From the IMG/VR virus record IMGVR_UViG_3300021138_001458, positions 1 to 53,953 of that record: a stretch of DNA of 53,953 bases; one strand, given 5' to 3'. Position numbers and translations under genes: made by a program. Of the stretch, positions 5,165-53,492 are shown in pieces. Every line of letters begins with the position of its first letter. The first letter of the stretch is position 1. The notes under the pieces are model-generated. The model searched no databases and was not told where the DNA came from. It worked only from the letters and a program-made list of their open reading frames with translations. The stretch comes from a virus. Taxonomy: Duplodnaviria; Caudoviricetes.

Positions 5165-5689
5165 TTATTTGTTTTCTTCAATGAATGTAATTAATAATTC
5201 TTCTAGCTCTTTTGTGTATTTTGGGTTAGCAGCCCCAGCAGCCCAAGCAGCCCAAGCAGCAGCCTTAGCAGCCCCAGCAGCCCTAGAAGCAGCCCTAGCA
5301 GCAGCCCTAGCAGCACTAGCAATCCTAGCAGCATCCGAAGCAGCCCAAGCAGCATCCACAGCATCCTCTAACTCCTCTACACCTATCTCACCTGCTAGGT
5401 ATAACCTAGCAGCTTCTATTGCTTTACGAGGTCTGTTATCACTAGGGTACTCCTCTTCAAAGATAGGAAGAACAGCTTCTGCTATTTTAATAGCAAGATG
5501 TTGGTTCTGACTATTTGTAAAAACTCTACAACAAAAGAACCAGTACTTATCCTGTAAAGGAATACTACTCTGTAGTATATCTTCATAGCTAACTACTTCT
5601 CTTTCTTTTGGAAATAGATTTTCTATTTGCTCACTTTCATAACATCCTATATTTTCTAACAGGAACTCTAAATTGTATTCTGTTTGCAT
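5165..5689 (-). CDS. Imm5-like (putative immunity protein family) helical protein with an Ala-rich tail
   Basis: AE.VLPIFE..YP.DNRPRKAIEAAR motif followed by AAWAA/AARAA repeats. Confidence 0.65.
   Translation of the reverse strand: MQTEYNLEFLLENIGCYESEQIENLFPKEREVVSYEDILQSSIPLQDKYWFFCCRVFTNSQNQHLAIKIAEAVLPIFEEEYPSDNRPRKAIEAARLYLAGEIGVEELEDAVDAAWAASDAARIASAARAAARAASRAAGAAKAAAWAAWAAGAANPKYTKELEELLITFIEENK
5227..5365. repeat. degenerate tandem repeat (gcagccc[c/a/t]a units) encoding Ala-rich repeats
   Basis: Seen directly: gcagccccagcagcccaagcagcccaagcagcagccttagcagcccc... Confidence 0.8.
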
Positions 5690-6085: not shown

Positions 6086-6100
6086 AATTTTCTATTTAAT

Positions 6101-6131
6101 TAAATATAAGAACTATTCTTTGACCAAACAA
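6101..6131 (-). promoter_or_regulatory. Bacteroidota-type promoter
   Basis: TTG(6131-6129)-N20-TATATTTA(6108-6101). Confidence 0.7.
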
Positions 6132-6142
6132 CTTTATTTTAT

Positions 6143-10312: not shown

Positions 10313-12625
10313 TTAGTGACCGTCTCTCATATTAGTTGTTACTTCAGGGATTGCTATCAGCTGAACTCCATCTAGTGTTGTTGTGTTTTCCATACAATCC
10401 TGTACAATCTCACAAGCTCTCTTTGTATCCTCATCCTTTACTTGGCAAACTAATTGGTCATGTATCTGAGCTATTACTTGTCCATCGATTCCTTCCTCTA
10501 TAAATCTTCTATTGATTCTAAGAGCAGCTCTGTTTACTATGCTTGCAGAATAACTCTGGATCTGGTAGTTGAGGCAATTATTTAGAGCATTCTTATAATC
10601 CCTATACAGTTTAGTTATTTCTTCTACTCCATACTGTCTTTCCATTTCTTTTTTAAACTTCCAGTCCTCGAGAAGCTTATCACCCATTGCAGCATAAATC
10701 TCCTTTGCAACAGGTAAATGTCTAACACGACCTACTTTATTCTTAATATAACCGTTCTCCTTCACAAAAGCTCTCGATCCTTCTCTCCATTTCCTAAGAT
10801 CTGGAAATCCATCCAAGTAACCCTCCACTAATCTCTCTCCTTCTTTCTTGTCTACAGATAAAGTCATTGCAAGTGCATATCCTGACATGCCGTAAGCAAC
10901 CCCTAACGAATAAGACTTTGCAGTTTGTCTTTTGACAGGATCTACTTTCTTTAGAAAGTTTGGTGCTTTTGTATGAGCACTAACCCCTTCTAATTTTTCA
11001 GTCTTGATAGCAATAAAGGAGTAGAAGTCTAAGTCTTCACGGAAGATAGTCTTTAATCCCTCATCTCCTGTTACAGCTGAGAATACTCTCGGTTCTAGTG
11101 ATTGATAGTCGGTGTCAATTAGCTTATAACCTTCATCCGAAATAAAGAAAGCCCTTACTACATTAGTGTAGTCCATTACAATTTGATCATCTTGACCATC
11201 CTCTAATGGTTTTGGTAGCTGCTGTAGATCTGATCCATACCTTCCTGATACTGTACCGTTCTGTTTGAAGTACGGATGAAATCTTTCATTATCCGCAGCA
11301 TCTAGAAATCTATCAATATATGCTGATTTGATCTTAGTTAGCTTGTTATAAATTCTAAGATACTTTGCCCACGTATGTTCATCTCCTATGGACTGAATTA
11401 GATCCTCGTCGAACTGGTCTTTGCCTTTCGTGGTTTGTGATTGTGGTTTGATTCCTAGCACTCCAAAAGCTATCTGACCTAGTTGATCTTTGGATTGAAT
11501 GTTAAAGAACACTCCTCCATTATCTTCTTTCCAAAGTCCTAAGCTAACTTTTACAATCTGCTCTTTCGTTAGAAACTCAGAATCTCCAGTCAAAAGAAAA
11601 CTCTTGATTGGACCATCCGGTAGTCCTGCTACAGTTAATTTGTTTATAGAAAATTTTCCCGTCTTTTCGGATCTTGGAAGCTCCACTCCTTCAATCTCTA
11701 ATAAACGCTGAGCAAAGGTTCCAGCCTTCTTAGGAGGATATTCCGTAGTTGCTTTTTCAATAATCCAAGTTCTAACCTCAGGAAGACTTAGCAATTCCTG
11801 TACTACTAAGTCAGCATGCTTCTGTAAGTCTGCTGTAATGCTCTTTTTAGTTTCTTCTATTAGAGGAATGTTAAGTCTAACACCGTGTTCTTCCATTCTA
11901 ATCGTAACTTCTCTGTAGAGAGGCATTACCTCATCCTCAAAGAAAAACTTCTCAAGTCCTTCCTCCTTCAATATCTCTAGGAAGTGGTTACATATTCTAA
12001 GAGTCAAGTCAGCATCCGCTGCTGCGTACTTAGCTAGAATGTCCATGTCTGCTTTGAAGATCTCATAGTTATCTCTACTCGTACTGCCACCACTTCTCTT
12101 GATGCTCTCTTTTAGTTCTAACTGCTCTTCATTCGCTGCTTTCTCAACATCAATACCGATCTTGTCCTGAATTAGTCTTGCTATTTCCTTAAGACCGAAA
12201 GGCTTGCCTCCAATACCAAACGCACCTTCTTCTTTCACAGTATGCACGAGTAGTGCAGTGTCTATGTAGATTGATGGAATTAGGTTTATACCATAAAAGC
12301 ATTTCGTAAACCTTCCATCGAAAGATCCGTTATGCATCACTAACTTCTTACCAACTAGCTTTTGTATAGCATATTTAGCTAGATCGTGACACCTTTTTCC
12401 ATTTAGACTCACCTCTCTTAGAGCTTCATTCTCAAAAACCATAGTAGGCATATAGTACCCCCTTCCAACTTCGCCTGAGACAGAGAAACCGATTATCTGT
12501 CCTCTTCTAGGATTCAGACTATCGGTCTCCGTATCATAAGCTAGTATTTCGTGTTGATTTATGTGCTCTATCAGTTCTCGGAAAGTTTCTAAATCATTTA
12601 CTAAAACATAACTTTTTTCTTGCAT
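10313..12625 (-). CDS. polA: DNA polymerase family A (3'-5' exonuclease + polymerase; no 5'-3' exonuclease)
   Basis: Exo I DTET, Exo II HNGSFD, Exo III YAAAD; motif A DYQSLEPR, motif B RQTAKSYSLGVAYG, motif C IHDQ. Confidence 0.95.
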   Translation of the reverse strand: MQEKSYVLVNDLETFRELIEHINQHEILAYDTETDSLNPRRGQIIGFSVSGEVGRGYYMPTMVFENEALREVSLNGKRCHDLAKYAIQKLVGKKLVMHNGSFDGRFTKCFYGINLIPSIYIDTALLVHTVKEEGAFGIGGKPFGLKEIARLIQDKIGIDVEKAANEEQLELKESIKRSGGSTSRDNYEIFKADMDILAKYAAADADLTLRICNHFLEILKEEGLEKFFFEDEVMPLYREVTIRMEEHGVRLNIPLIEETKKSITADLQKHADLVVQELLSLPEVRTWIIEKATTEYPPKKAGTFAQRLLEIEGVELPRSEKTGKFSINKLTVAGLPDGPIKSFLLTGDSEFLTKEQIVKVSLGLWKEDNGGVFFNIQSKDQLGQIAFGVLGIKPQSQTTKGKDQFDEDLIQSIGDEHTWAKYLRIYNKLTKIKSAYIDRFLDAADNERFHPYFKQNGTVSGRYGSDLQQLPKPLEDGQDDQIVMDYTNVVRAFFISDEGYKLIDTDYQSLEPRVFSAVTGDEGLKTIFREDLDFYSFIAIKTEKLEGVSAHTKAPNFLKKVDPVKRQTAKSYSLGVAYGMSGYALAMTLSVDKKEGERLVEGYLDGFPDLRKWREGSRAFVKENGYIKNKVGRVRHLPVAKEIYAAMGDKLLEDWKFKKEMERQYGVEEITKLYRDYKNALNNCLNYQIQSYSASIVNRAALRINRRFIEEGIDGQVIAQIHDQLVCQVKDEDTKRACEIVQDCMENTTTLDGVQLIAIPEVTTNMRDGH

Positions 12626-14170: not shown

Positions 14171-15172
14171 TTATCTTAAACCTCCATCAACACCTTTATA
14201 AACAATAGCTGTTGCTGACCATGGATGCAATGACTCAATGTGCTCCGTTACTACTGAGAAATCATAAATCTTCCCAGCTTTAAACCACTCATCCAATCCT
14301 GCATATAATAACCTAGAAGCGTCTTCTGTGAAAATTAGATTAGATCCGTTCAACTCTGCAAATGCTTGCTCATCCCTCCTCTTTACCACTATTTGAACTT
14401 CAGTCGGTACTTGCTGCCTTGCTAGTTCAACTAAATCTTCAATCCAAACTACCTCACTGGGGTCAAACTGAACTTTTATTCGTGCTACGCTACGTTGACT
14501 GTGTCCATTAGCAGCCTTACCTCTACGCTCTCTTGCATCCTGCGATAATTCAAAAGAACATGGACAGGTACTGCTGTATATGTAATCTACAGTTAAGTAA
14601 AAAGCGTACGCATCACCATGCAATTGTCCTTCTAGTTCACAGTTGTAGAAAATGTGACCTCTTAGTTTATTGTGGCTAAGTTTAACACCCTCAACAACCT
14701 TAAATACTTCTTCGCTAGGGGCATCGGATGATAACTCCTCTCTTGTTCTAAGCGCTTCTTGATCCCACTGATAAGAGAAGCGCAGCTTGCAGTAAGCATC
14801 TTTGCAATTTTGCTTTTTTTGCAACTCTTTCAATATATCCTTAAGTCCATCAATTGATAACTTATTTGACACCTTGTCGTGCATTAGCAAGTAAAATCTA
14901 CTTAGATTCAACCCCTTTGCTTCAGGATCATCGAGAGATCCGTACAAAGAAGCCTTTGCATGTAAAGTCTGCTCAGTACCATCTCTTCGTATCAACTTAA
15001 TTGGCAAATCAACGGGACCGATGCCTACTTTCTGAATAGGTACTTTTGCTCCTGGTAGAATAGGCTGTTGTTGTGGATCTGGTAACTCTGAATCGTCTGG
15101 GTAGTACGTGTTATCGTACTTGAAATCTAAGTGCGGCATCTTGCTCGCATGGTCAATGTAATTAAGCTCCAT
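14171..15172 (-). CDS. folE2: GTP cyclohydrolase I type IB (FolE2/MptA)
   Basis: KGLNLSR, STCPCS, HSQRS, VKRRDEQ, FTEDASR and ESLH motifs. Confidence 0.9.
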   Translation of the reverse strand: MELNYIDHASKMPHLDFKYDNTYYPDDSELPDPQQQPILPGAKVPIQKVGIGPVDLPIKLIRRDGTEQTLHAKASLYGSLDDPEAKGLNLSRFYLLMHDKVSNKLSIDGLKDILKELQKKQNCKDAYCKLRFSYQWDQEALRTREELSSDAPSEEVFKVVEGVKLSHNKLRGHIFYNCELEGQLHGDAYAFYLTVDYIYSSTCPCSFELSQDARERRGKAANGHSQRSVARIKVQFDPSEVVWIEDLVELARQQVPTEVQIVVKRRDEQAFAELNGSNLIFTEDASRLLYAGLDEWFKAGKIYDFSVVTEHIESLHPWSATAIVYKGVDGGLR

Positions 15173-15207
15173 AGTTGCTTGTTATTATTAATTTATATTG
15201 AAAAATA

Positions 15208-15900
15208 CTAAATATTCTCTAATGTTCCAACTTTATTTTTACAGTTTTCAAAATGCCACTGTATCATCTGCGGTTTACCTCCTCTCTGCTTACAGTGTGG
15301 GCACTCTACTATCTCTTTTGGTTTTCCTTTATGTACCTTAGCGTATGTATTACCTATCATGGTTGGTCTAGGAGATCCTTTAATCTTTACGCCAGTCATA
15401 CTATAACAATTATCAAAGTGTAACCTTTTCATATTACTGATACCACCGACCTTGCTACAATGAGGGCACTGCACTCTTTCTTGAGGTCCCACTCTCTTAC
15501 CACGTCTAGATTGTGCTCTTTTTTCAATGGTTTCTTTCGATGGTTTATTTGTACCGTTTTTAATTCTGGTTTGTTGTCTCTTTCTGATAGAATCCTCCGA
15601 CATCTTTCCGCTTTTATCACCAGCCTTTGTTAAGTAGCAATTTAAACCCATCGAACTAGTTGATTGAAATAGCTCTTGATAGTATCTCTCCCAGTAATTT
15701 AACTCCTCTGTTTTACACTCGGTAATTATTTCGAATTTATGTGAATCAACTCCGTATTTTATAAAAGATTTATATAGTATAATTTGAGTTTTACATGCTC
15801 GCATTTTTCTATATTCGTCAAATCTTCGCTGGATGTCGATAGTTTGTCCTATGTATATTTTTCCTGTCGGACTTGTTATTTTATAAATTCCAGTTATCAT
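15208..15900 (-). CDS. GIY-YIG homing endonuclease with C-terminal zinc-finger repeats
   Basis: GIYKITSPTGKIYIGQT, R..EY, conserved E and N; two CPHC...HF.NC repeats. Confidence 0.9.
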   Translation of the reverse strand: MITGIYKITSPTGKIYIGQTIDIQRRFDEYRKMRACKTQIILYKSFIKYGVDSHKFEIITECKTEELNYWERYYQELFQSTSSMGLNCYLTKAGDKSGKMSEDSIRKRQQTRIKNGTNKPSKETIEKRAQSRRGKRVGPQERVQCPHCSKVGGISNMKRLHFDNCYSMTGVKIKGSPRPTMIGNTYAKVHKGKPKEIVECPHCKQRGGKPQMIQWHFENCKNKVGTLENI

Positions 15901-16024
15901 AGTAAATAAAAAAGGCTCTTAGTTTAAAAGAGTACGGCAATACCCAGTTAAACCTTGAGCCAAATATTTTGTTAGCTGTTGCCGCAGCTTTTACTATAAT
16001 AAATAGTTGGCAATTAACTCAAAA
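15901..16024 (-). ncRNA. structured cis-regulatory RNA leader, copy 1 (kissing-loop architecture)
   Basis: Hairpin AGCTG-CGGCAA-CAGCT; long hairpin GGCTC-AA...GGGTA-TTGCCG-TACTC...AA-GAGCC plus U6; closing stem TAGTAAA/TTTACTA. A homologous copy lies at 28882-29007. Confidence 0.7.
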
Positions 16025-17526: not shown

Positions 17527-18384
17527 TCAAAGAAATTTCCAGATAAACCCGTAGGCAGTTTTTTGTTTACCAGCGCAGCAATTGCTGATATTACCTTTGA
17601 TTCTATGAGAGGACTTATTAAATGCTATCTCAGCATCCTTAACACTTCTGTATGATCGTACTAAGTCTCCGGTAACTTTATCATACTGCCCGACCGGTTT
17701 TTTGACTTTTTCAGATGCTTTTTTTCTTCCTTCTGTAATATTTGCTTTTTTCTTTTCAGCTTTGGTTTCGTACATTTCTAAATCAGAGATACGCTCCTCT
17801 TTGTACTTCCACAAAAACCCTCCTGCTTTTTTCTGATATCCTCTTAAAACTCCGGCTATATTATTTATTCCTGTGTTTTTAAAGGCTTCTTGAATCGAAT
17901 AGTACTCCTGTACTGTTCTACTAGTTTCCGGATCTACTTGTAGCACTGCTCTTGCTCGTTTCATTCTTGTATCTTTACTTACAGTTTTACCTGTGTGTAC
18001 CTGTCTTATTTTAGCTATCTGCTCTACAGTGTGGTAGCTTTTGCCTTTGCGTGCTGATGACTGCTTATTACGTGTATCTAACGTAGTTACATAACCTACC
18101 CTTTGATCAGTCACGTACTTGCGAATGTTGTACTCAGGTTGATGAGTATCTATATAATACTGCTCTCTTTCTAAGAGTTCGCTTATAGTTACAAGTTCCA
18201 GTACTTCAAAAATAAACACATCCTTACCGTATTTACAGTATGCATTTTGTAGTATAGGACTATGATGCTTACCATTCCTTAAAGATCTCCAGTGCTCCAG
18301 CTCTCTACTTCTTAGGTTTCTAGTACTTCCTATATAAACCTTATTATTACATAAATCTCTAATTTGGTATATTCCAGATTTCAT
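17527..18384 (-). CDS. GIY-YIG homing endonuclease with NUMOD-like DNA-binding repeats
   Basis: GIYQI...VYIGST..R..EH, LLEREQYYID...YN; two C-terminal V.Q.D...Y.S..EA...I..C..G..K.A.GF.WK modules. Confidence 0.92.
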   Translation of the reverse strand: MKSGIYQIRDLCNNKVYIGSTRNLRSRELEHWRSLRNGKHHSPILQNAYCKYGKDVFIFEVLELVTISELLEREQYYIDTHQPEYNIRKYVTDQRVGYVTTLDTRNKQSSARKGKSYHTVEQIAKIRQVHTGKTVSKDTRMKRARAVLQVDPETSRTVQEYYSIQEAFKNTGINNIAGVLRGYQKKAGGFLWKYKEERISDLEMYETKAEKKKANITEGRKKASEKVKKPVGQYDKVTGDLVRSYRSVKDAEIAFNKSSHRIKGNISNCCAGKQKTAYGFIWKFL

Positions 18385-18424: not shown

Positions 18425-19183
18425 TTACACGGCAGTAGCCCTATCCCAAATAGTTACATGTAATCTATCAGTGAACCTAACTCCTTCCTTTATAGCTAAA
18501 TCAGCGGCTAATTCTCTAGTTTTACTCAACTCCTCCTGAGTTTGACCTTCCGGCATAATAACAATTTTATCTTTGCTGATAAATCCAGGCTGTATAAATG
18601 TTTCGTAGATTTCGTTCCAATCTTCTTTGCTGTTAACAACAAACTTAAAAATGGAGTTAGGCAAGCTTCCCATATACGTAAGTGTGAGCGGTTTAATTCT
18701 TACTCTCTCTTTCATTCCTGAGTTATCTAATTTCGGGCTATTGTTCCACCAGTCTACCAAATCTACAAAATCAGTTGATGGCATTAACACTGCTTCGTTC
18801 TCTACTTCAACGTATGGTTTGAAACCATATTTAGCTACAAACGCTTTTAAGAAAGCTATACACTCTTTCTCTTGCTTTAGAGGTGACCCACCTGTTAATA
18901 TTAAATGTTGACCTGACTTGAATCTCTCTACTAAATTGATTGATTCGAACAATTCAAAAACTTCATCGAAGGAGTATTCGTTACCTTCTGGCCATACGTC
19001 TATGGTATCGCACCATACACATTTTAAGGTACATCCCTGCAATCTTATAAATGTAGAGATAACCCCTGCATGTGGTCCTTCTCCTTGTATGGTATCTGAA
19101 AACATTTCAGATATTGCTAACTTGTTTTCACCTTCTACTTTCTTAGTAAAGGTGGGTTTTTGCTGTATTAATGTAACTGGCAT
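18425..19183 (-). CDS. queE: 7-carboxy-7-deazaguanine synthase (radical SAM)
   Basis: EMFSDTIQGEG, FIRLQGCTLKCVWCDT (CxxxCxxC), LTGG.P, SPKL, KFVV, MPEG and RLH motifs. Confidence 0.92.
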   Translation of the reverse strand: MPVTLIQQKPTFTKKVEGENKLAISEMFSDTIQGEGPHAGVISTFIRLQGCTLKCVWCDTIDVWPEGNEYSFDEVFELFESINLVERFKSGQHLILTGGSPLKQEKECIAFLKAFVAKYGFKPYVEVENEAVLMPSTDFVDLVDWWNNSPKLDNSGMKERVRIKPLTLTYMGSLPNSIFKFVVNSKEDWNEIYETFIQPGFISKDKIVIMPEGQTQEELSKTRELAADLAIKEGVRFTDRLHVTIWDRATAV

Positions 19184-19878
19184 GCGTTATTAATGTTTAA
19201 ATTTAATTTAATGAATTCCTCTTGAACTTCCAACTGATTTTTTGCATTGAAAGAGTACCTGAAGACTTTCCAACCTTGTGATCGTAGGTACTCATCTCGT
19301 TTAGCGTCTCTTTCAATAGCGTCTGGAAAGGAGTGCCAGTAGAATCCATCGTACTCAAAATCAAGTTTTAACTCTGGTACTGCTACGTCTAAATAATAAG
19401 TCTTACCTGGAGCTTTTATCTCGTATTCAATAACTGCAGTTGGAAATATATCTCTTATCTTTTCAAACAATAGTAACTGTCCTCTACTTATATTATTTCC
19501 TGTAAAAAACTTTCTAGGATTATCCTCCTTCCAAAATTTACTAGCTTTAGCTCTTTTCTTTGCAGCTACTTCCGGATCCATAAAATCCTCATACTTACGT
19601 CCTTTTAACGGGCTTACTTTTCCCTTGGTGGACCTACCTCCTTCTTTTTTCCCTTCTGCTTGATTTTCGATCGCTTTCTGCAAATCCTCGACTGTTCCAT
19701 GATCTTTAGTAAGCTGTTTTGCAGTTGGATAAGAGCAGAGAATTAAACCTTCGTCTTGCATTTTCTTAAAAGTCACTCCTTTCCAGATTAACGGTCTAAT
19801 TACAGTTTCGTAGTAAGCAACTCTTTGCTCTCCCATATAGTTTAACCTTCTCCAGTCCATTTTTTGAGTAAATTTCAT
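19168..19878 (-). CDS. Vsr/DUF559-like (PD-(D/E)xK) putative homing endonuclease
   Basis: C-terminal YYLDVA...FEYDGFYWH...ERDAKRDEYLRSQGWKVFR; N-terminal basic DNA-binding segment. Confidence 0.8.
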   Translation of the reverse strand: MKFTQKMDWRRLNYMGEQRVAYYETVIRPLIWKGVTFKKMQDEGLILCSYPTAKQLTKDHGTVEDLQKAIENQAEGKKEGGRSTKGKVSPLKGRKYEDFMDPEVAAKKRAKASKFWKEDNPRKFFTGNNISRGQLLLFEKIRDIFPTAVIEYEIKAPGKTYYLDVAVPELKLDFEYDGFYWHSFPDAIERDAKRDEYLRSQGWKVFRYSFNAKNQLEVQEEFIKLNLNINNACQLH

Positions 19879-21542: not shown

Positions 21543-22568
21543 TTATACTATTTCGCATGCTCCACCAGCGCAAGCTGCTTCTGAGCGTAAGTCTGTGTTG
21601 TCTTGGTGCTCAGTTACCTGAGTTAGATCCAAGCCTGTTAAGCTCTGCATCATCTCCGTATACTTATCTTCTGTACAGTCCTCAAAAGGAGCTTGTATAT
21701 AGGTTCCTCCGTTATAAGGTAAAACTGATAATCCATTGTAGAATTTTCTATTCTCCCACATCCACTCTCCGACTTGCTTCCACTCTTCTGGTTTGATCGA
21801 GACAGTTGCTGATATGTTATGCGTATTTTGTCCAGTTCTGTGTCCAGGTTTAATCCAGCCTATATAGAAAAGTTTAACTCTCTCTAATAAATCAAGAGCT
21901 GATTCATGTCTTAGAATCGCACCTTGAGGGGCTTTTTGAGGAACTGAGATTACTGCTGTATCATGTGGACGGAAATATTCATCTTCTACTAGCTCTGGAT
22001 GAGCTGCTTTTAGGTAATCGTAGATTGCTTCGTTCTTACCTACTCTAATTCTTCTGATATAGTAGTCGTTATGCCAAGCATGGATACCTGAGGAGGTTCC
22101 TAGCGTTAGCGAAGAAGTTCCAGATGGTTTTATCGTAGTACATCTAGCTGCTGCATTAATACCTAACAACTTAGCTACTCTTTCATTTTCTTCTTTTACG
22201 ATTTCAGCTGCTTGTTTTAAGTCTAGTAGTTGAGCTTTTCCAGAACCAACTCCTGTCATTCCTACTCCAATTAGAGCATCTTTTTCGGTTGTACGTTGCC
22301 ATACTGGTCTTAGGTAGTGGAAGTTTGTGTAAGAAGCCTGTAAAGTACCGATAAAGGTAGCTGCTTTTACTCTTGCGTTTAGATCCTCTTGAGATTCAAC
22401 ATCGGATACATTTACTTCACATAGATTACAGAACTGAAAAGGACGCAAGGCGATTTCACAGTTATGCGCTAATATGTTGTTTGCAAAGAAGTTATGATTA
22501 TTCTCTACTTCTATATCATATACATCCTTCAATGCTTCTATAAACTCTATTGATACTAATCTTGCCAT
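21543..22568 (-). CDS. nrdJ: class II ribonucleotide reductase C-terminal part, fused to a C-intein (36 aa)
   Basis: VYDIEVENNHNFFANNILAHN|CEIALRPFQFCNL; TTIKPSGTSS; C-terminal ACAGGAC. Confidence 0.93.
   Translation of the reverse strand: MARLVSIEFIEALKDVYDIEVENNHNFFANNILAHNCEIALRPFQFCNLCEVNVSDVESQEDLNARVKAATFIGTLQASYTNFHYLRPVWQRTTEKDALIGVGMTGVGSGKAQLLDLKQAAEIVKEENERVAKLLGINAAARCTTIKPSGTSSLTLGTSSGIHAWHNDYYIRRIRVGKNEAIYDYLKAAHPELVEDEYFRPHDTAVISVPQKAPQGAILRHESALDLLERVKLFYIGWIKPGHRTGQNTHNISATVSIKPEEWKQVGEWMWENRKFYNGLSVLPYNGGTYIQAPFEDCTEDKYTEMMQSLTGLDLTQVTEHQDNTDLRSEAACAGGACEIV
22461..22568 (-). mobile_element. split intein C-fragment (Int-C, 36 aa)
   Basis: Block F VYDIEV..NHNF.AN, block G HN, and Cys at +1 (22458-22460). 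Confidence 0.92.
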
Positions 22569-22569
22569 T

Positions 22570-23367
22570 TTATTTTAATTTATGTTTATGTTTATGTGCT
22601 CCATAGTCCGGTATGTTTTTATAGGACCATGCTCGTAGACATTTACTGCTACAAAATTCTTTATTGCTTTTATACTTAGACTCAAAATCACTATTACATT
22701 CTTTACAGTTTTTACTCACTACTGGGTTACGCTGGCTGTTATAAGCTCTCCTCTGCTCGGAAATCCGCTGTCTCCTCTCAATGCCATCTTGCGTTTTAAA
22801 ATACTCTTTTTGTCGCTCGGAGTTGTGCTTTCGATAATCTTCAGTCTGTCTCAGCAATGCCTTCTGCCTTATAAGCTCTACTGTAGATGCCTTGTGCTTC
22901 TTACCATACATTGGATTATTCTCTCCACTAACATCCGAAATACGGTCATAAGTCTCTATAGATTTTTGAACCCAAGCCTCTACTTCTTTTTTGAGTTCGT
23001 ATTTAGCCACTATTCCTTGAAATTTCCAAACAACCTCGTAGTCGATTCCTATAGAATTAAAAAAATCTTTGTACGAAGCTAGGTACCGTAGAGCAGTGGC
23101 TTTATCATCCAGTCCTTTTATCTCTACTATTTTAGTAATCGTAGTATACGTAGAATCAAAGATAAAAAAATCTGGCTTATACCTAATTCCCCTAATATCG
23201 TAAGTGCAGCATTCTAACTTATACGGTATCTTCTCAGTATCTAGCATTCTAGCGTATATAAACTCAGCTTTGCTCCTTAAAAAGACCCTTTTATTGTCCC
23301 ACGTAGTATGGTAGCCGATATACCCTCTACTTCTACAAGTTCCCCTTTTTGCTCTTCCTCCACTCAT
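22570..23367 (-). CDS. free-standing putative homing endonuclease (PD-(D/E)xK-like, NUMOD3 and zinc-finger tail)
   Basis: RSKAE...YKPDFF...VEIKG; GENNPMYGKKH; CKEC...FCS..C. Lies between the two nrdJ halves. Confidence 0.8.
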   Translation of the reverse strand: MSGGRAKRGTCRSRGYIGYHTTWDNKRVFLRSKAEFIYARMLDTEKIPYKLECCTYDIRGIRYKPDFFIFDSTYTTITKIVEIKGLDDKATALRYLASYKDFFNSIGIDYEVVWKFQGIVAKYELKKEVEAWVQKSIETYDRISDVSGENNPMYGKKHKASTVELIRQKALLRQTEDYRKHNSERQKEYFKTQDGIERRQRISEQRRAYNSQRNPVVSKNCKECNSDFESKYKSNKEFCSSKCLRAWSYKNIPDYGAHKHKHKLK

Positions 23368-23376
23368 AGTTGATAA

Positions 23377-23427
23377 TGTTTTAGTGTTATATCTCTACTA
23401 TAAATAGTATGAAGTTGCACTAAAACA
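23377..23427 (-). promoter_or_regulatory. late-type promoter (TATTTAT 23406-23400) inside an inverted repeat
   Basis: TGTTTTAGTG / CACTAAAACA outer arms and TACTAT / ATAGTA inner arms. Confidence 0.6.
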
Positions 23428-23442
23428 CCGCTAACTTCAATG

Positions 23443-23766
23443 TTAAATCAAAGAAGGGTATACTATTATATCATCCTCATTTGTTAAGTTTTTACACTCA
23501 ACCCATCCTCTATTCGTAGTAAAAAATCGATGATCAGGGGTGCAGGTTACGGAGTAGCTTATACCGGCCTCTACTACTGTAAGCTTAACAACAACTGCAT
23601 CCTTTTTAGTAAGTTGCCCTGCTTTTACTGTATTTACTTCGATTTGACCAGTGCCTTCGTTAAACGTCTTTACCTTACAGGTCTGACCGTTATTTACAGC
23701 CTCTACTATTTCCTTAATTGACATCTTTCCAGATTCTGTTTCAATTAAAGTGTCCCCTACAAAGCA
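23443..23766 (-). mobile_element. split intein N-fragment (Int-N, 107 aa)
   Basis: Block A CFVGDTLI, block B CTPDHRF.T.RGW...L...D, then a stop codon. Confidence 0.92.
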
Positions 23767-24705
23767 ACATGGATTAGTTCCCCAATCTTTGTCGTTTGAA
23801 AAGTATATTCCTGGTTCACCAGCTCCACTTGCTTCAATTCTTTCCCATAAATCAAAGAAAAATTCCTCTGTAATCTTGTTTCTTAGTAGCACTGCAGAGT
23901 TGTTTGCACGACCTCTTTGTGGATTTAACTCCCACCAAGCTCCTGATTTAGCTGCAATCATATCCATATCATCTGCTGAGAATAGGCTGATTAAGGCAGC
24001 TCTTCTAATTCCTCCTGCAAGTACTGCATCTGCAATATGACAAACGATATCATGTACTTGAATAGGTGAAAGTTTCTCACTGTCTCGTTTGCTATCCAGA
24101 ATACTCTGTACTCTAGCTAAACAGTCCTTTAATGGTTGAGGTCCTGGTGCCTTACCTCCAGAAGTAATTAAGGCAGCTCCTTTTGGTCTAATGTCTGAGA
24201 AATCAAATACAATAGTTGATCCTCCTTCAAAGTACGACTTTAGTAATACCTTTACTGCATCTGCCCAACCTTCAATAGAATCTCCAATTAAGTATCTCCT
24301 AGTTCTGTCTGGGTTTGGTTTTCTGATTTCTGGTAGTTTTTCTATGTGATGCTTTTGCACTGAGTATCCAACCCCAGTTCCACCTAGCAACAAAAACATC
24401 GCCTCACCAAAAGCTCTCCAATCATCGATTGGTAAGTAGGCACAGTTATAAACTCTGTTTGGTGATATCTCAATTGACTTTCCTGCAAACTGCATTGAAC
24501 GCATGGAAGGTAAAGCCTTTCTTTCATAAACAAACTTATAAGCTTCTTCTATCTCTGCTTCTAACTGAGGAAACTTCTTCAGATGCATACTCTTATTCCT
24601 ATCAACTAACTCTTGCCAAGTCTCCCTACGTTCCATTAGCGGATTATACTTGGCATACTTCATGTGAACTGTTAAATCACTTAAAATGCTCTGTGAAATG
24701 TCCAT
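23443..24705 (-). CDS. nrdJ: class II ribonucleotide reductase N-terminal part, fused to an N-intein (107 aa)
   Basis: RETW, PSMRS, YNC, GTGVG, SGGKAPG, GGIRRAA and RANNS motifs; WGTNPC|CFVGDT...TPDHRF. Confidence 0.93.
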   Translation of the reverse strand: MDISQSILSDLTVHMKYAKYNPLMERRETWQELVDRNKSMHLKKFPQLEAEIEEAYKFVYERKALPSMRSMQFAGKSIEISPNRVYNCAYLPIDDWRAFGEAMFLLLGGTGVGYSVQKHHIEKLPEIRKPNPDRTRRYLIGDSIEGWADAVKVLLKSYFEGGSTIVFDFSDIRPKGAALITSGGKAPGPQPLKDCLARVQSILDSKRDSEKLSPIQVHDIVCHIADAVLAGGIRRAALISLFSADDMDMIAAKSGAWWELNPQRGRANNSAVLLRNKITEEFFFDLWERIEASGAGEPGIYFSNDKDWGTNPCCFVGDTLIETESGKMSIKEIVEAVNNGQTCKVKTFNEGTGQIEVNTVKAGQLTKKDAVVVKLTVVEAGISYSVTCTPDHRFFTTNRGWVECKNLTNEDDIIVYPSLI

Positions 24706-25327: not shown

Positions 25328-26707
25328 TTACTTTGACAATTCAAAAAACTTCTGTTGTAAATAATTCTTTTCCTGTGCACTAAAGTTAATTCCTGTTTTT
25401 TGAGGAGCCCCCCCTTGTGAACCTTCAGTCGCAATCAAATCTTCATCCATCTCAGAAGCTTCTATATCTATGTGACCATTATCAGTGTTGACCTTTGCTT
25501 GATAAGTCATACCATCAGATCCATACCTATTTTTCATGATGTGGATTCTTCCTGTCTTATTTACCTTATCCTGTCTTTTTCTTGATAAAGACATCGCAAA
25601 GTCAGCAATCATAATCTTATTATAAGACCCTGCTGCCTTGTCTCCTTCAATAACATCATCTTTCGCTCCTGCTCTATTAACCTGAGAAACAGTCCAGATT
25701 GGAATCTTAAGCTCTCTTGCCATCCCCTTGGTGGACATATAAATATCGTCTATCTCGTCTTTCTTGTCTATAGATTTTCTCTTTGATTTTAGTAGATCTA
25801 CATAGTCAATAATAACGAGATCTGGGGGATGTCCTAGATCTGTGCACTTTCTTATATGGGCTTCAATCGTAGAGATGCTTGCTTTTCCCATTGGATACTC
25901 CTTGATGATAAGCTTCCCTGTTAAACCTGCTACTGCCTGCTCAACTGCCTCTCTGTGTAAATGTATTTCTTTTACTGGTAATCCTGTAAAGATGGAGTCG
26001 TACCTTCTACCTATATAATCCTCAGCTAACTCCAGAGTGTAGTGATTAACTGTGTACCCTAGCTTTACTGCAGTTGCTCCAAGGTTAGATAACATCCAGG
26101 ATTTACCTCCTCCTGGACCTCCAAATATAAGTCCTACGTCACCTCTTCCAAGACCTCCCATCAAGAGCTCGTTAATATGATCCCAAGAAGTTGGGATTGG
26201 TCCTCTCTCTTCTGCTCGATATCTAGTTTCAACATCCTTATCGTACTCATGTCCAATATTCTTATCTTGTCCTGCTTTTAGAGCAGAGTCCATTACGTAC
26301 CTGATATCATCATACTGCCCTCCATCAAGGAGATCTGGTAATAGTAGAATTGCTTTTTTTAGCTGCTGGTTTCTACAAAAATTAGAAAATTCCTGCTCAA
26401 TATACTCCCTATCCTCGTTAGAAGCTTTATAAGCCTCTTTTAACTGATCAATAACAGATACCTTTAATACATCATTTTCTATCTTCTTGACTTCAACCTG
26501 CAAAGAATCTAGAGTTGGAGTTGCATGATACTTATAGTGATATCTCAAGATCTCCTCAACAATCCATTTATGTGCTGGATTATCGAAGTAGGATTCGTCT
26601 AGGATATCGTGAATATTCTGTAAAAATTCTCTATGCTTTAGTAAACTGGATAGTACTTTAACTTGGAAGCCTATCCCGTAATTTTGTAACTGATTCAAAA
26701 CTGCCAT
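25328..26707 (-). CDS. DnaB-like replicative helicase (T4 gp41-like)
   Basis: Walker A GGPGGGKS, TLEL, IIDYVDL, SQVNR and KNRYG motifs. Confidence 0.92.
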   Translation of the reverse strand: MAVLNQLQNYGIGFQVKVLSSLLKHREFLQNIHDILDESYFDNPAHKWIVEEILRYHYKYHATPTLDSLQVEVKKIENDVLKVSVIDQLKEAYKASNEDREYIEQEFSNFCRNQQLKKAILLLPDLLDGGQYDDIRYVMDSALKAGQDKNIGHEYDKDVETRYRAEERGPIPTSWDHINELLMGGLGRGDVGLIFGGPGGGKSWMLSNLGATAVKLGYTVNHYTLELAEDYIGRRYDSIFTGLPVKEIHLHREAVEQAVAGLTGKLIIKEYPMGKASISTIEAHIRKCTDLGHPPDLVIIDYVDLLKSKRKSIDKKDEIDDIYMSTKGMARELKIPIWTVSQVNRAGAKDDVIEGDKAAGSYNKIMIADFAMSLSRKRQDKVNKTGRIHIMKNRYGSDGMTYQAKVNTDNGHIDIEASEMDEDLIATEGSQGGAPQKTGINFSAQEKNYLQQKFFELSK

Positions 26708-26745
26708 AATCTTCCTTTATTATAATATAGGTAACTTTTTTTAGT

Positions 26746-27771
26746 TTAGCAACCTTTATTCTTAAACACCTTGAGGTTGCTGAAGGTATCGTGTAGCCAC
26801 ATTTGTGGATTTGTAATACTTCCTCCCAACATATCCTCATTGTACAACTTTATAAAAGCTGCCGAGTGTAGTTCATTTTTTGGATTTTCTAAGACCTCCT
26901 GTATAACTGCTTGATCTTCAATAGGAATATTCGGATTACTTAGATCCATTAATAACTTATTTATTTTAAGCTGATGTGCGAAGTTCGTAACATTAGTATA
27001 CACTCCTGTCTTTCCCTCAGCCTGTTCCAGTATTGTCTCTAAACTAATCACCTCTTCTTTGGCAATATCTGGAAATTTCTTTAACATCGTCTTCAAGCCA
27101 AGCCCCTGTACTCCTGGTACATTGTCAGACTTATCTCCTAATAAAATCTTCTGGATTAGGAAATTCTGAGCTGGTAGTCCGTACTCCTCCTTTACACTCT
27201 TTTGAGTATAGAATTTTTTCTTGATTGGAGAAAATACTGTAATTCGATCTGATACTAGCTGCAGGTAGTCCTTATCTGAGGAGTATATTACGACTTCCTC
27301 TTTTAGAGTTTTTGCAATATGCCCAATGACATCATCAGCCTCAATCTTATCAATTATAAGAAGATCTACAGGAAGGCATTTTAAATAGGAAATAAGACGT
27401 ACGATTTGATCTGTAATTGAATCAGACTCCTCCTCCTGAGAATCAAAGGCATCCCAGTTACTAATCTTAGAAATCTTACGATTTGCTTTGTATTCAGGAT
27501 ATAAATATCTCTTATTAGTTGATCCTCCGTGTCCATCAAACACCAGAATAACTCTTGTTGGTTGTATTAATCTTATTGCGTGTCCAATAGATTTTAAATA
27601 TCCAGCTAAACCTCCAATATGATTTCCATGTGGATTTAGGTGGTGTATCATAACAAAACTACGTAGAAAGGTATTTAGGGAGTCCACTATAAGAACTTTG
27701 CTGTTTCTGTGTAATGGCTCCTGTTTAGCTTCTTTTAGATTGCTAAATAATGCTTGAAATTCTTTGTTCAT
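26746..27771 (-). CDS. 5'-3' exonuclease / flap endonuclease (T4 RNase H-like)
   Basis: IVDS, VFDG, YPEYKANR, EADDVI, SSDKDY and GDKSDNVPGV.G.G.KT motifs. Confidence 0.92.
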   Translation of the reverse strand: MNKEFQALFSNLKEAKQEPLHRNSKVLIVDSLNTFLRSFVMIHHLNPHGNHIGGLAGYLKSIGHAIRLIQPTRVILVFDGHGGSTNKRYLYPEYKANRKISKISNWDAFDSQEEESDSITDQIVRLISYLKCLPVDLLIIDKIEADDVIGHIAKTLKEEVVIYSSDKDYLQLVSDRITVFSPIKKKFYTQKSVKEEYGLPAQNFLIQKILLGDKSDNVPGVQGLGLKTMLKKFPDIAKEEVISLETILEQAEGKTGVYTNVTNFAHQLKINKLLMDLSNPNIPIEDQAVIQEVLENPKNELHSAAFIKLYNEDMLGGSITNPQMWLHDTFSNLKVFKNKGC

Positions 27772-28156
27772 TTACCTTTCGTTTTTGTTGTGCGATAGGA
27801 TTAGCCAGCCTATCCTGTATTCTCTCTCGAACTAATTGTGTAGCTGCTTCAGGAGGACAATACTGTCCCATTAAATGAATAGGCACTCCGTCCCAAGAGC
27901 TTTCATAGTTTTGCACATTAAATCCACGAGCTATACATTCTGTATAAAGCTCTTTGTATCTCTCTTTTAAGTATCCTAATCGAGTATAGAAGAAGGATAC
28001 GTGTCCTTTACCAAGAGTAAACTCTTTTGGTGCAGTTTTTAGATTATATCTTCCTTTAGATACTACGTTCGGAACTCTCTTAAGTTCTCTGTGCTCAGCT
28101 ATCAAATGTTTGTTTGTGAGCTCTTTTGGCGGAATGCCTACATTAATCCTTGTGAT
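27743..28156 (-). CDS. denV: pyrimidine-dimer DNA glycosylase (T4 endonuclease V); start extended to ATC
   Basis: The frame reads (ATC)TRINVGIPPKELTNKHLIAEHRELKRV...FTLGKGHVSFFY...RG, matching DenV MTRIN...HL.AE.REL.R and giving 137 aa. Confidence 0.88.
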   Translation of the reverse strand: MTRINVGIPPKELTNKHLIAEHRELKRVPNVVSKGRYNLKTAPKEFTLGKGHVSFFYTRLGYLKERYKELYTECIARGFNVQNYESSWDGVPIHLMGQYCPPEAATQLVRERIQDRLANPIAQQKRKVNEQRISSII

Positions 28157-28198
28157 AGTGTTTAATTTAAGGTGTAATTTACTTTATTATATATCCTT

Positions 28199-28229
28199 TA
28201 AAGATACTCTTTTTTATTTACCAATGCAA
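28199..28229 (-). promoter_or_regulatory. Bacteroidota-type promoter for denV
   Basis: TTG(28229-28227)-N20-TATCTTTA(28206-28199). Confidence 0.6.
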
Positions 28230-28233
28230 CTTT

Positions 28234-28881
28234 TTACAAGTACTTACACTCTCCTCTCTTTATCAACCTTGTTATATAGGCCTCACTGCGATTTAGTGCA
28301 CTTGCTGCAAATCGTCGAGATCCGTAAACTGTTCCTGTAGGGAGGTGCAGCAGTTGCTTTGATTGACGCCTTGATTGTTCCGGATAAGACTGTCCCCATC
28401 TAGGGTGGTTTGCTCCACGCACTTTATTCTTAGCTGCTTCTGTTTTTTTCAGACCTGTTCTAGCTTTCACCATCTTTTGGATTGTAGCACTTGAGTGTTT
28501 TCTTCCGTACATAGGATTCTGACTTCCAATCCTTACGCTTGCCTCCAATGCATTCAGCTGCTTAGCTTCCGCATATGCCCTGCTTGATGGAGCATATCTG
28601 CCAGCTTGCCATTTATTTTTTAGATTGCAAAGTGCCCAGTAAGCGTATACTAGTTTCTGTGTACCTGGATGGATTTTGCACAATAGTCGATGACATATAA
28701 AATGTTCTTTAGCAGTAAGCAGTGTTATATTGGAGTGAGTTTTCCATTGATAAACCGATCCACCCCCTCCTAAACACTTTGGAACGATGTGGTGTGCTTC
28801 GTAGTAAACACCTTCACCTTTCCCTCTACTCTCCCTTCTAGCTCTTTCAATAATCTGATCGTAGATCCTTTGATAATTCAT
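28234..28881 (-). CDS. HNH homing endonuclease (Mob-like) with NUMOD3 repeat
   Basis: MNYQRIY..II..A, YEAHHIVPKCLGG...N...LTAKEHF.CH.LL; NPMYGRKHS. Confidence 0.9.
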   Translation of the reverse strand: MNYQRIYDQIIERARRESRGKGEGVYYEAHHIVPKCLGGGGSVYQWKTHSNITLLTAKEHFICHRLLCKIHPGTQKLVYAYWALCNLKNKWQAGRYAPSSRAYAEAKQLNALEASVRIGSQNPMYGRKHSSATIQKMVKARTGLKKTEAAKNKVRGANHPRWGQSYPEQSRRQSKQLLHLPTGTVYGSRRFAASALNRSEAYITRLIKRGECKYL

Positions 28882-29007
28882 TATAGTAAATAAAAAAGGC
28901 TCTTGGTAAATGTAAAGTACTGCAATACTTCACAAACCTTGAGCCTAATATCCTATGACTGTTGCAGCAGCCTTTTACTATAATAAATAGTGAGTTGTCT
29001 AGGATAT
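28882..29007 (-). ncRNA. structured cis-regulatory RNA leader, copy 2 (kissing-loop architecture)
   Basis: Hairpin GGCTG-CTGCAA-CAGTC; long hairpin GGCTC-AA...TGTGAAGTA-TTGCAG-TACTTTACA...AA-GAGCC plus U6; closing stem TATAGTAAA/TTTACTATA. Confidence 0.7.
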
Positions 29008-29011
29008 ACGA

Positions 29012-30091
29012 CTATTCTGATTCAGAAGCATCAAAATAATCTTTTATGTCGTTATCAGTCTCCTCCACTATCTCAAAATCTGTGGAATTTAACACCTTCA
29101 GCCAGTCTCCTGAATAGGCCTTTTTATAGTCGTCAATTGCTTTTTTGTCGTCATCTATAAAACCGTGAGCTGTCATTAAGACTTTACCGATAGAGGTTAC
29201 GTCGTTTACGTGATTCTTGTCTATAGAAATCTTGGTTCGCTTCGCAAACTCAATCTCCTTTCCATTCTTTGTAGCCTTTATTTTATTTGTACCTGAGCTT
29301 GATACATTACCAAATGTAATGACCAATGTAGCATCGAAATACATTGTGTTCCCCCCTTTATTTGCCATCCTAGGCTGTCCCATAATACTCTCAGCTTTCG
29401 CAACCCAAATCTTATTCACAGCAAGCATCGTATTGGTATACGGTTGACTTACCTTACGTGATAAAACTATTTTTTGATTGATAAAGTTACCAAACTGTTG
29501 AGACATGGCTCCTGCATTCCACTCATTGTTGTTCTTGTTAGACTCAACCGATAGACGAGATGGAATAGATCCTACAGAATCCCAAAGGAATAGTAGGTCG
29601 TAGGGTAGCCTGTTATGCTTCTGCTCATCTAGCAAGTCTGCTATAAAGGCAGCAACATCCTCAATAGTATTTAGTCTCTCTCTATCTACATAGATAAAAA
29701 ATCCTTTGTAATCTGCAATTTCTCCATCCTCATCTGCGACTTCCTCAAATTGAAGTCCCATCTGTCTTGCATGATCCCAATTCCATTTCATCTCAGTAAT
29801 AATCAAAACAGGCAAGATTCCCATCTTCTGAGCGCTTACTGCTGCTTCTAGGAGAGCGGTAGTCTTGCCTGTATCTGAGTGACCTCTTAATAAAGTTATA
29901 TGACCAATAGGAACTCCTGGTATTGATAGACATTTCTGGAAAGCTGGGGATAGGGGAATCCATTGCTGGGTTTTCATCTTTATCGATGTAGATGTAAGGT
30001 TCTTTGCTTTTAGAAAACCCTCTAAGTTAAATTCTCCCTTAATAGCTGATGTTACAGCTTGATTTAAGCTACCTCTTGTCGATTTTGCCAT
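29012..30091 (-). CDS. uvsX: RecA/UvsX-like recombinase
   Basis: G.P.GHIT.L.GHSDTGKT Walker A, WDSVG Walker B, KGG...F and KNH motifs. Confidence 0.88.
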   Translation of the reverse strand: MAKSTRGSLNQAVTSAIKGEFNLEGFLKAKNLTSTSIKMKTQQWIPLSPAFQKCLSIPGVPIGHITLLRGHSDTGKTTALLEAAVSAQKMGILPVLIITEMKWNWDHARQMGLQFEEVADEDGEIADYKGFFIYVDRERLNTIEDVAAFIADLLDEQKHNRLPYDLLFLWDSVGSIPSRLSVESNKNNNEWNAGAMSQQFGNFINQKIVLSRKVSQPYTNTMLAVNKIWVAKAESIMGQPRMANKGGNTMYFDATLVITFGNVSSSGTNKIKATKNGKEIEFAKRTKISIDKNHVNDVTSIGKVLMTAHGFIDDDKKAIDDYKKAYSGDWLKVLNSTDFEIVEETDNDIKDYFDASESE

Positions 30092-30097
30092 ATAGTT

Positions 30098-30943
30098 CTA
30101 TTTCTTTTTAAGATCAAATAAATCTTCAAATTCTTGATCAATATCAGCCTTTACTTTAGCTGGTTTGGTTTGTAGTGAATACTTCTTCTCCTCTGCTGCT
30201 ACTTCTTCCTTAATTGAAAGTGGTTTTGCAGGAGCTGTAGTGGTTGGAGTTTCCTCCTCTTCTGCATCGTCTGTAGCTTCTTCAGGGTTTAACCACTCAA
30301 GTAGAGATGCTTTCATCTCATCATAAGGATATCTCTTGAAAACAGCTAATGGATCTGGTTGGTCGTTTAACCACTTTTCTACTTGCTTTCCGTCAGTAGA
30401 TAACGGAGTTGTCTTTGTACGTACACGCACTTTTGACTGATTGAAACTAGTTCCGTTTGTTTCAGGTCCTGTAGTCTCGATTGTGATATCACGACCATCT
30501 ACTGGATCTGTGTAATCACCTACGTCCTCATCCTCTGCAATGCTAAGTAGTTCCATGTAAACTTGTTTACCAAATTCCCATAAACGAACACCCTTCTCTT
30601 CCTCTCCTCTTACAACAACAGGAGCAAATACACGCATTTTTGGCTCTAATTTCTTAGCCATAGACCAGTTTTCTTTGCTACTAGTCTGTTTTAACTGTTT
30701 AGCGAACTCCACAATCGGATCTTTCTCTCCGAAATTTACAAGAGAAATCATAGTGCCCTTACCAATACCGTAATGCATGTAGACTTCTTTGAATGGGTTT
30801 GCTTTGTCATACACGGACGGCACAATTCTCACAGAATGCTTACCTATGGCAGGCTTCCAGAAAATCTGCGACATGTCCCTCTTTTGGCCTCCTTGCTTCG
30901 TTTGCAGAGCGCCAAGCCTTGACTTAATGGCTGATAAATCCAT
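30098..30943 (-). CDS. single-stranded DNA-binding protein (T4 gp32-like)
   Basis: FWKP..G...VRIVP, DPI, GVRLWEFGK.VY, D...GRDI; acidic C-terminus; upstream of the recombinase. Confidence 0.8.
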   Translation of the reverse strand: MDLSAIKSRLGALQTKQGGQKRDMSQIFWKPAIGKHSVRIVPSVYDKANPFKEVYMHYGIGKGTMISLVNFGEKDPIVEFAKQLKQTSSKENWSMAKKLEPKMRVFAPVVVRGEEEKGVRLWEFGKQVYMELLSIAEDEDVGDYTDPVDGRDITIETTGPETNGTSFNQSKVRVRTKTTPLSTDGKQVEKWLNDQPDPLAVFKRYPYDEMKASLLEWLNPEEATDDAEEEETPTTTAPAKPLSIKEEVAAEEKKYSLQTKPAKVKADIDQEFEDLFDLKKK

Positions 30944-53464: not shown

Positions 53465-53492
53465 TTGTTATTGTTTTTATGTTGTTTATAAG

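Follow-up and report, generated by a model that had tools for sequence, protein, structure and literature searches.

A portable leader with complementary, covarying hairpin loops upstream of unrelated homing endonuclease genes in uncultured phages

INTRODUCTION

To our knowledge, what is known about the control of homing endonuclease genes has so far come almost only from T4-like coliphages. In the T-even phages, a late promoter lies inside a hairpin that sequesters the ribosome-binding site (I-TevI, I-TevII, I-TevIII, segB, and Aeh1 mobE), and intrinsic terminators are found in the 5' part of T4 mobE and segF (PMC2988022). Here, we describe a leader element that occurs twice in a stretch of 53,953 nucleotides of an uncultured member of the Caudoviricetes (IMG/VR record IMGVR_UViG_3300021138_001458, positions 1 to 53,953; this whole stretch is referred to as the window), where it precedes two homing endonuclease genes that are unrelated to each other.

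The element resembles these systems in several respects. It would also regulate a selfish nuclease gene, with a putative promoter that may lie inside a stem hiding the start on transcripts coming from upstream, and a terminator at the 5' end of the gene would likewise lower the transcript level. The start signal is found in a stem here too (the AUG, or its AU, in the closest copies), and one of the two nucleases of the window is a homologue of MobE. However, there is no sequence relation, and it is the AUG itself that is held in the stem, with no Shine-Dalgarno sequence involved. The leader is also much larger, forming a predicted three-way junction in which the loop of a second hairpin pairs with the loop of the terminator-like hairpin, and one leader serves at least five nuclease families in a role that we infer.

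Another related group is formed by the PeSLs, described as conserved promoter plus stem-loop elements that mediate the shuffling of open reading frames (ORFs) (PMC2839356; PMC4122927). Like the element studied here, PeSLs as described there are ~100 bp long, combine a promoter with a stem-loop or terminator between stop and start codons, and precede unrelated, variable ORFs. In the same accounts, they consist of a sigma-70-like early promoter and one G/C-run stem-loop flanking ORFans, whereas our element has the motif CTATTTAT with no -35/-10 pair, two hairpins plus a junction, covarying loops, and a tie to nuclease genes.

Fully complementary hairpin loops of 6 to 8 nt are used by the plasmid systems ColE1 RNA I/II, R1 CopA/CopT, and pT181, in which the loop sequence is the specificity code and varies among related elements, and in the phi29 pRNA two complementary loops of one three-way-junction RNA pair between molecules. 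Unlike in the plasmid systems, both loops lie here on one gene-strand transcript and not on a countertranscript, and no antisense RNA of Rfam matched. The pRNA of Rfam did not match either; in contrast to it, the element is not at a packaging locus, the phage has a tail sheath gene, and there are two to four leader copies per contig, each before a nuclease gene. We regard the leader as a relative in kind of the known nuclease gene leaders and of promoter/terminator cassettes, its new part being a hypervariable, self-complementary kissing-loop pair.

RESULTS AND DISCUSSION

Two copies of one structured leader

Copy 1 (15896-16006, minus strand) ends in the ATG (15900-15898) of a GIY-YIG ORF, and copy 2 (28880-28990, minus strand) in the ATG (28881-28879) of a NUMOD3/HNH ORF. 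The two leaders, of ~105 bases, can be aligned from CTATTTATTATAG through the ATG; their flanks and ORFs are unrelated. The alignment bears out the sequence-only reading from which this work started, which had seen a shared element before these two genes. A search of the whole record with the element found only these two copies (E = 2e-22). RNAfold predicts the same three-way junction for both. Its closing stem is called P1 here; of the two hairpins, A is short and has a loop of 6 nt, whereas B is long and runs into six uridines (U6). The fold energies are -34.1 kcal/mol for copy 1 and -35.4 kcal/mol for copy 2 (z = -5.2 and -5.35), and none of 200 shuffled sequences was as stable.

In copy 1 (all positions on the minus strand), the putative promoter motif CTATTTATTATA, an exact 12-mer, occupies 15995-16006, and its 3' end is overlapped by the 5' arm of P1, AUUAUAGUAAA (15990-16000), present in the RNAfold minimum free energy (MFE) structure and in the RNAalifold consensus. 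Hairpin A (15975-15988, GCUG/CAGC) displays the 6-nt loop CGGCAA at 15984-15979, and hairpin B (15914-15961) has a lower stem GGCUC/GAGCC, an AA/AA internal loop, and the apical loop UUGCCG at 15940-15935; both hairpins are backed by sequence, RNAfold, and covariation. The terminator-like U6 run (15908-15913) stands directly 3' of hairpin B in the sequence, and the 3' arm of P1, UUUACUAUGAU (15896-15906; sequence and RNAfold), holds the AUG at 15900-15898.

Copy 2 has the same parts on the minus strand: a match to the 12-mer CTATTTATTATA (28979-28990, promoter-like), the 5' arm of P1 (28974-28984, from RNAfold), hairpin A (28957-28972, GGCUG/CAGUC) with loop CUGCAA at 28967-28962, and hairpin B (28897-28946) with apical loop UUGCAG at 28925-28920, these two again resting on sequence, RNAfold, and covariation. 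The U-run (28892-28897) follows or overlaps the last pair of hairpin B, and the 3' arm of P1, UUUACUAUAAU (28880-28890; sequence and RNAfold), overlaps the AUG at 28881-28879. All four loops lie exactly where they had been placed before. The closing stem at the ATG is also present but longer than had been proposed: P1 has 11 bp, AUUAUAGUAAA with UUUACUAU(G/A)AU, and includes start codon bases: the entire AUG of copy 1, and its first two bases (AU) in copy 2 as well as in other close copies described below (RNAfold and the RNAalifold consensus).

A family of leaders in viral contigs and metagenomes

Three true copies emerged from two pattern scans of viral contigs, in which 3 of 4 and 3 of 17 stretches were genuine and the rest were chance matches. 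A scan of metagenomes gave 105 stretches, the best 80 loci of which were searched with a covariance model (R1) built from five copies, and of the five stretches of a further pattern scan three were unrelated and two were the known copies L006 and L008. This leaves eight distinct copies of what we call type I, namely, the two of the window (w1 and w2) and six beyond it: L006 (the same as L058), L007, L008, L060, L098, and L101. A nuclease gene follows in all eight (GIY-YIG in 3/8 and HNH in 5/8). The hairpin B stem GGCUC/GAGCC and the U6 run, both seen in the sequence-only reading, are invariant in 8/8 type I copies, 10-16 nt before the AUG, and so is the AA/AA internal loop. The 3' arm of P1 varies in L007 and L008 to G-U pairs only.

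A set of 66 viral loci with genes for relatives of the HNH protein supplied more distant members; a protein search with the GIY-YIG product gave only 3 loci. In 18 of the 66 (14 distinct), CTATTTAT is located 102-116 nt before the ATG, and two hairpins and then a U-run occupy the interval. Model R1 produced only weak matches on the 66 loci (15-20 bits), and these leaders, too divergent for it, were recognized by folding as two further architectures. In type II, hairpin A is long, its lower stem being made from the flank of the promoter-like motif, and hairpin B aligned poorly. Type III has a conserved hairpin B with the internal loop AAGUA/GAAA. A scan for the hairpin B core gave 86 stretches, and among the best 80 of them a type III model (R2) found 36 matches, which include 27 distinct full-length leaders; the same model found none among the best 80 of at least 120 pattern-matched stretches of genome contigs.

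Altogether there are ~40 distinct leaders, comprising the close copies and the two divergent subarchitectures. The layout is common to all: after CTATTTAT comes hairpin A, then the long, terminator-like hairpin B with its U-run, and last the ATG. Stems and U-runs analogous to hairpin B and U6 of type I are present in types II and III. Some relatives have short leaders, in which the motif flank pairs directly with the AUG (L157 and L160) or the motif lies inside a hairpin followed by a U-run (L156).

Loop-loop complementarity is kept through sequence change

Throughout the leaders examined, the loops of hairpins A and B complement each other perfectly. The type I loop pairs are CGGCAA/UUGCCG, CUGCAA/UUGCAG, and CUGGCA/UGCCAG, each on more than one backbone, and the kissing helix is paired in 8/8 genuine rows, with both sides changed at 3/6 positions (the unpaired kissing cells of the alignment all come from one spurious plus-strand row). 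In the type I model alignment, 94.4% of the cells are paired versus 30-47% after sliding the 3' partners by 1-3 columns. The 14 distinct type II and III loci among the HNH relatives all have apical loops complementary over 6-8 nt, for example GGGCAAU/AUUGCCC, GUGGAUG/CAUCCAC, and GGUAACGG/CCGUUACC. The 7-bp kissing helix of type III is 100% paired in 8/8 sequences, with both sides changed at 4/7 positions; among 500 shuffles, none reached the observed value on 4/5 measures, and 6/500 did so on further pair types. In the 27 distinct further type III leaders, the loops are complementary in register in 24 and, judged by eye, in a shifted register in 3.

Across the three types, the number of different loop pairs is ~27. 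In 20/22 leaders, the cognate loops have 6-7 complementary bases in common (the two lower values are misfolded MFE loops), versus a mode of 2-3 for noncognate loops. The sense strand folds better than its complement in 18/23 leaders and in 8/8 of type I, and the G-U pairs of the stems fall on the sense strand. The loop covariation first noticed between two copies holds far beyond them, and the junction with its loop-loop pairing is upheld by the z-scores of about -5 and by the changes on both sides of the helix. This comparative evidence demonstrates an RNA-level structure on the gene strand with a base-paired contact between the loops of hairpins A and B; the contact may form within one molecule or between molecules.

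The second possibility leads to a different explanation of the element, which we consider rather unlikely: a discrete small RNA of ~85-95 nt, from the motif to the U-run, in which loop A of one molecule pairs with loop B of another. The loops would then be a private address of each cassette, a proposal that we rate just as low, for dosage sensing, for feedback on the nascent leader, or for avoiding interference among coresident cassettes, and the divergence of addresses could be compared with that of plasmid incompatibility groups, which diversify. A small RNA gene would indeed be laid out in this way, with a promoter-like motif at its start and a terminator-like hairpin plus U-run at its end. 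By geometric reasoning, an intramolecular contact would also be sterically awkward in type II, where a linker of only ~6-11 nt separates the long hairpins A and B, although intramolecular pairing is normally favored over intermolecular pairing.

The rate of change of the loops speaks for the same explanation. In type III backbones less than 10% apart, loop A diverges by 0.317 per site, other unpaired positions by 0.105, and stems by 0.039, figures that are pairwise counts on related sequences with constrained positions in the unpaired class and are therefore only suggestive and no test of selection. Smaller leader sets give the same order, loop over other unpaired over stem. Loops that have about three times the rate of change of other unpaired positions and nevertheless remain complementary, through ~27 pairs, are better accounted for by a small RNA than by the cis-acting leader that we favor below, but with constrained positions among the unpaired ones they are no proof of diversifying selection.

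Copies on the same contig never share a loop pair (9 pairs, from two leaders in the window, two in G003, four in G004, and two in the contig of L243), so that every multicopy contig carries different loop pairs, as separate addresses would. The four leaders of the 102-kb contig G004 all differ in their loop pairs; two of them stand before HNH genes, and the others before a GIY-YIG gene and an EndoVII-like gene. However, by a rough estimate the chance of no reuse among the 9 pairs is ~0.6, which is expected at such diversity and is not significant. A terminated leader RNA that recognizes only leaders of its own kind in trans, as an RNA-based self-recognition or dosage circuit whose specificities have diversified against cross talk, is in our view unlikely.

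The leader travels inside nuclease cassettes

The contig of L008 is syntenic with positions 26200-30900 of the window, and the two have reciprocal empty sites. At the junction between the recombinase and denV-like genes, L008 has 36 nt with a host-type promoter where the window has the leader and the HNH gene. At the junction between the 5'-3' exonuclease and DnaB genes, the window has ~38 nt where L008 has a leader and a GIY-YIG gene. These empty sites place the leader inside the inserted nuclease cassette. In the phage immuto, the recombinase and exonuclease genes abut or overlap. L101 agrees with copy 1 in its upstream gene and its leader (77% identity over 368 nt), but where copy 1 has its GIY-YIG ORF, L101 carries an HNH ORF resembling the one behind copy 2. 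This indicates that ORFs have been exchanged at the leader. Comparison of these loci shows that the leader moves with its cassette and is common to unrelated nuclease genes, in keeping with the portable module originally proposed.

The genes downstream, which the earlier reading had suggested tabulating, agree with this. Nuclease genes of at least five families follow 25 of the 28 distinct type III rows: GIY-YIG in 12, MobE-like HNH in 6 (one cut to 44 aa), EndoVII-like in 3, DUF723-type HNH in 2 (one protein), and NUMOD4+HNH_3 in 2. The product has no recognized function in 2 rows, and 1 row ends with the contig. These assignments come from family searches for 12 proteins and from the N-terminal motif only for the remainder. 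A given loop pair is not tied to one family: leaders with GUCGUAG serve HNH as well as GIY-YIG genes, and those with GUCGGAG serve GIY-YIG as well as EndoVII-like genes. This makes an RNA partner of the nuclease, the less likely alternative of the earlier reading, unlikely. A nuclease guide RNA of the HEARO or omega-RNA kind was rejected, having no Rfam match, loops paired with each other, and the same loops with different nucleases.

Three further loci concern the tie between leader and gene. At L281 6020-6266 (the 62220-62340 region of the G004 contig), the HNH ORF behind a type III leader with intact loops breaks off after 44 aa; this leader seems to have outlived its gene, or to be only just outliving it. 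Low-scoring type III-like leaders with complementary loops at L218 6211-6568 and L272 4638-5483 precede an 82-aa unknown protein and a phrog_29280/primosomal-like protein, respectively, and therefore the leader is not strictly confined to nuclease genes.

Judging from L101 relative to copy 1, the leader is a plausible site of ORF exchange of the kind described for the PeSLs, and the finding of one loop pair before several nuclease families fits it as well. An explanation built on these facts would hold that the block matters mainly as DNA, providing ~100 bp of homology for the exchange of unrelated ORFs, with the fold as a by-product of promoter and terminator. We consider this improbable, since it gives no account of loop complementarity kept through ~27 sequences or of G-U pairs confined to the sense strand, and hypervariable loops lower the homology. 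A miniature transposon with inverted ends was also discarded: the supposed ends are the promoter flank and the sequence before the ATG, and every occurrence of the element is accompanied by an ORF.

Comparison with known RNA families

At gathering thresholds, a search of the whole window against Rfam 15 gave only two tRNAs. With E values up to 10, the two loci around the copies gave five matches of 14-19 bits, against cutoffs of 45-75, none of them on the strand of the element, which sustains the initial impression that it belongs to no named RNA family. When leaders of all three types were compared by blastn with 50,697 records of cultured phages, no match was found, nor was there one for the 2-kb region around copy 1. 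Literature searches, at the level of listed records, found no described kissing-loop or other RNA motif upstream of homing endonuclease genes. A group I intron fragment was rejected for want of an Rfam match, and a K-turn in the internal loop of hairpin B did not fit the K-turn consensus.

Hairpin B shows striking conservation of its internal loops (AA/AA in 8/8 type I copies and AAGUA/GAAA in type III), beyond what a plain terminator needs, and for this reason they could be a site of protein or tertiary contact. Such conservation would suit a sensor, that is, a riboswitch or a binding site for a phage protein that switches nuclease expression in response to a ligand or factor. We regard this as very improbable, given that there is no conserved multinucleotide unpaired core, that the junction and linker vary, that the three architectures keep only the two hairpins and their loop pairing, and that no riboswitch of Rfam matched even at E values up to 10. 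The label riboswitch-like given in the sequence-only reading finds no support, the loops being the most variable part of the leader; the junction, the loop pairing, the portability, and the lack of an Rfam family all stand.

The promoter-like motif

CTATTTAT is present 11 times on the minus strand of the window and once on the plus strand, and 10 of the 11 minus-strand copies are located shortly upstream of the ATG of an ORF. From the end of the motif to the ATG, there are 8-30 nt, but ~95 nt in the two long leaders. A looser search for the 12-mer (up to 2 mismatches) showed no enrichment in the window, with 30 found versus 21 expected. The distribution of CTATTTAT suggests a phage promoter. 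Since the motif of other genes ends 8-30 nt before the ATG, any start site should lie close behind it, and the 5' arm of P1 begins within its last 2 nt. Five of the ORFs behind CTATTTAT are nuclease genes: the two with long leaders and three with short ones (17527-18384, 19168-19878, and 22570-23367).

The motif is also one arm of a small inverted repeat at 18407, 19900, and 6471. A second intergenic repeat on the minus strand (GTTG, ~19 nt, TAnnTTTAG), which we take to resemble the housekeeping promoters of Bacteroidota, is found at 500-550, 794-840, 1149-1196, 1887-1934, 6093-6140, 15196-15239, and 53485-53532. One of its copies reaches into the GIY-YIG ORF at the 3' end, from where it would drive the FolE2-like gene downstream.

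A possible attenuator with a hidden start codon

The explanation that we favor, and hold to be moderately likely, is that the element is the 5' leader of a self-contained homing endonuclease cassette, providing portable cis-regulation by attenuation and start codon hiding with a kissing-loop lock. A cassette made up of the promoter-like motif, the structured leader, and the nuclease ORF would insert between phage genes. Hairpin B and the U-run would form an intrinsic terminator or attenuator close to the ATG on its 5' side. Most transcripts would end there, both those entering from upstream genes and those begun at the promoter of the cassette itself. In transcripts entering from upstream, the RNA copy of the promoter region would pair around the AUG (P1) and block translation. 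Those from the own promoter should be without most of the 5' arm of P1 and translatable if read through. The kissing contact would lock or tune the fold of hairpin B and thereby set the level of read-through and translation, acting as either a lock or an antiterminator. The net result would be low and well-timed expression of a potentially harmful nuclease, with the neighboring phage genes little disturbed.

Attenuation is suggested by the GC stem with its U-run, by the start codon in a stem, and by the analogy with the homing endonuclease genes of T4. As in intrinsic terminators, a G+C-rich stem directly precedes a U-run upstream of the ORF. The loop pairing stops at the stems, where flanking mismatches are conserved, and therefore no classical antiterminator helix is evident. 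By its sequence features and the T4 analogy, the leader probably keeps the nucleases under tight control.

Several points weigh against this explanation. The loops are the fastest-changing part of the leader, which is unexpected for a purely cis-acting structural lock. The promoter role of CTATTTAT, the position of the start site, and termination at the U-run are all putative and read from the sequence. A consensus terminator scan of the window, whose rule is a 3-8 nt loop directly closed by a stem, did not flag hairpin B, and the U-rich tract could alternatively be an AU-rich translation initiation region, as known in Bacteroidota. With P1 formed, the reach of a 5-bp hairpin A to the loop of the ~19-bp hairpin B may be geometrically questionable. 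Support for P1 itself is confined to type I, where L006 and L101 show 1-2 mismatches in its outer part. The promoter flank of types II and III is instead paired within hairpin A, and their A-run/U-run closing stem is uninformative for a pairing test. Finally, L144 has hairpin B only, without hairpin A.

Genomic context of the window

The record is a fragment of a virus, ~33% complete. Nearly all of its genes, like the leader element, are on the minus strand, and they include a tail sheath gene, a GroEL-like gene, and a replication module. The recombinase gene has 69% DNA identity to that of the Flavobacterium myovirus immuto, and the nearest cultured relative is a Flavobacterium myovirus. The GIY-YIG homing endonuclease gene downstream of copy 1 (15208-15900, minus strand) codes for 230 aa (Pfam PF01541, E = 3.6e-09; phrog_314, homing endonuclease). 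The MobE-like HNH/NUMOD3 homing endonuclease gene downstream of copy 2 (28234-28881, minus strand) codes for 215 aa (NUMOD3; phrog_655, homing endonuclease, E = 5e-46), with 31-37% identity to T-even MobE (tblastn to T6 mobE).

Two other homing endonuclease-like genes of the window have short leaders of 15-16 nt behind CTATTTAT, namely, a GIY-YIG gene (17527-18384, minus strand) and an HNH-like gene (19168-19878, minus strand). Interleaved with the nuclease cassettes are a FolE2-type GTP cyclohydrolase gene and a QueE-like gene of the 7-deazaguanine pathway (14171-15172 and 18425-19183, minus strand). The ribonucleotide reductase is found in two ORFs (23443-24705 and 21543-22568, minus strand) with an HNH-like ORF (22570-23367) between them, itself preceded by CTATTTAT at 23406; the region 21543-24705 looks like a gene split through nuclease insertion. 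Two separate ORFs ~19 kb apart match the family A DNA polymerase phrog_17 (10313-12625 and 31470-32765, minus strand). Just downstream of the HNH cassette, the denV-like (Pyr_excise) gene has an ATC (28106-28160, minus strand, at the upstream end of the ORF 27743-28105) where L008 has an ATG, and only an internal TTG start was found; this gene may have a nonstandard start or a damaged 5' end. An array of 9- and 12-nt repeats at 5227-5379 (12 copies of a 42-nt register) lies within the ORF 5165-5689 (minus strand).

Implications

The ~27 loop pairs on near-identical backbones make up an unusually clean natural covariation series for a kissing-loop contact. If the loops were addresses, mobile genes would have in them a new means of distinguishing self from non-self, and they would be a source of ready-made orthogonal RNA-RNA interaction pairs. 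A homing endonuclease gene needs a level of expression high enough for it to spread and too low to harm its phage, and the leader may set this level in the form of a compact and portable regulatory RNA that has been taken up by unrelated nuclease families in uncultured aquatic phages.
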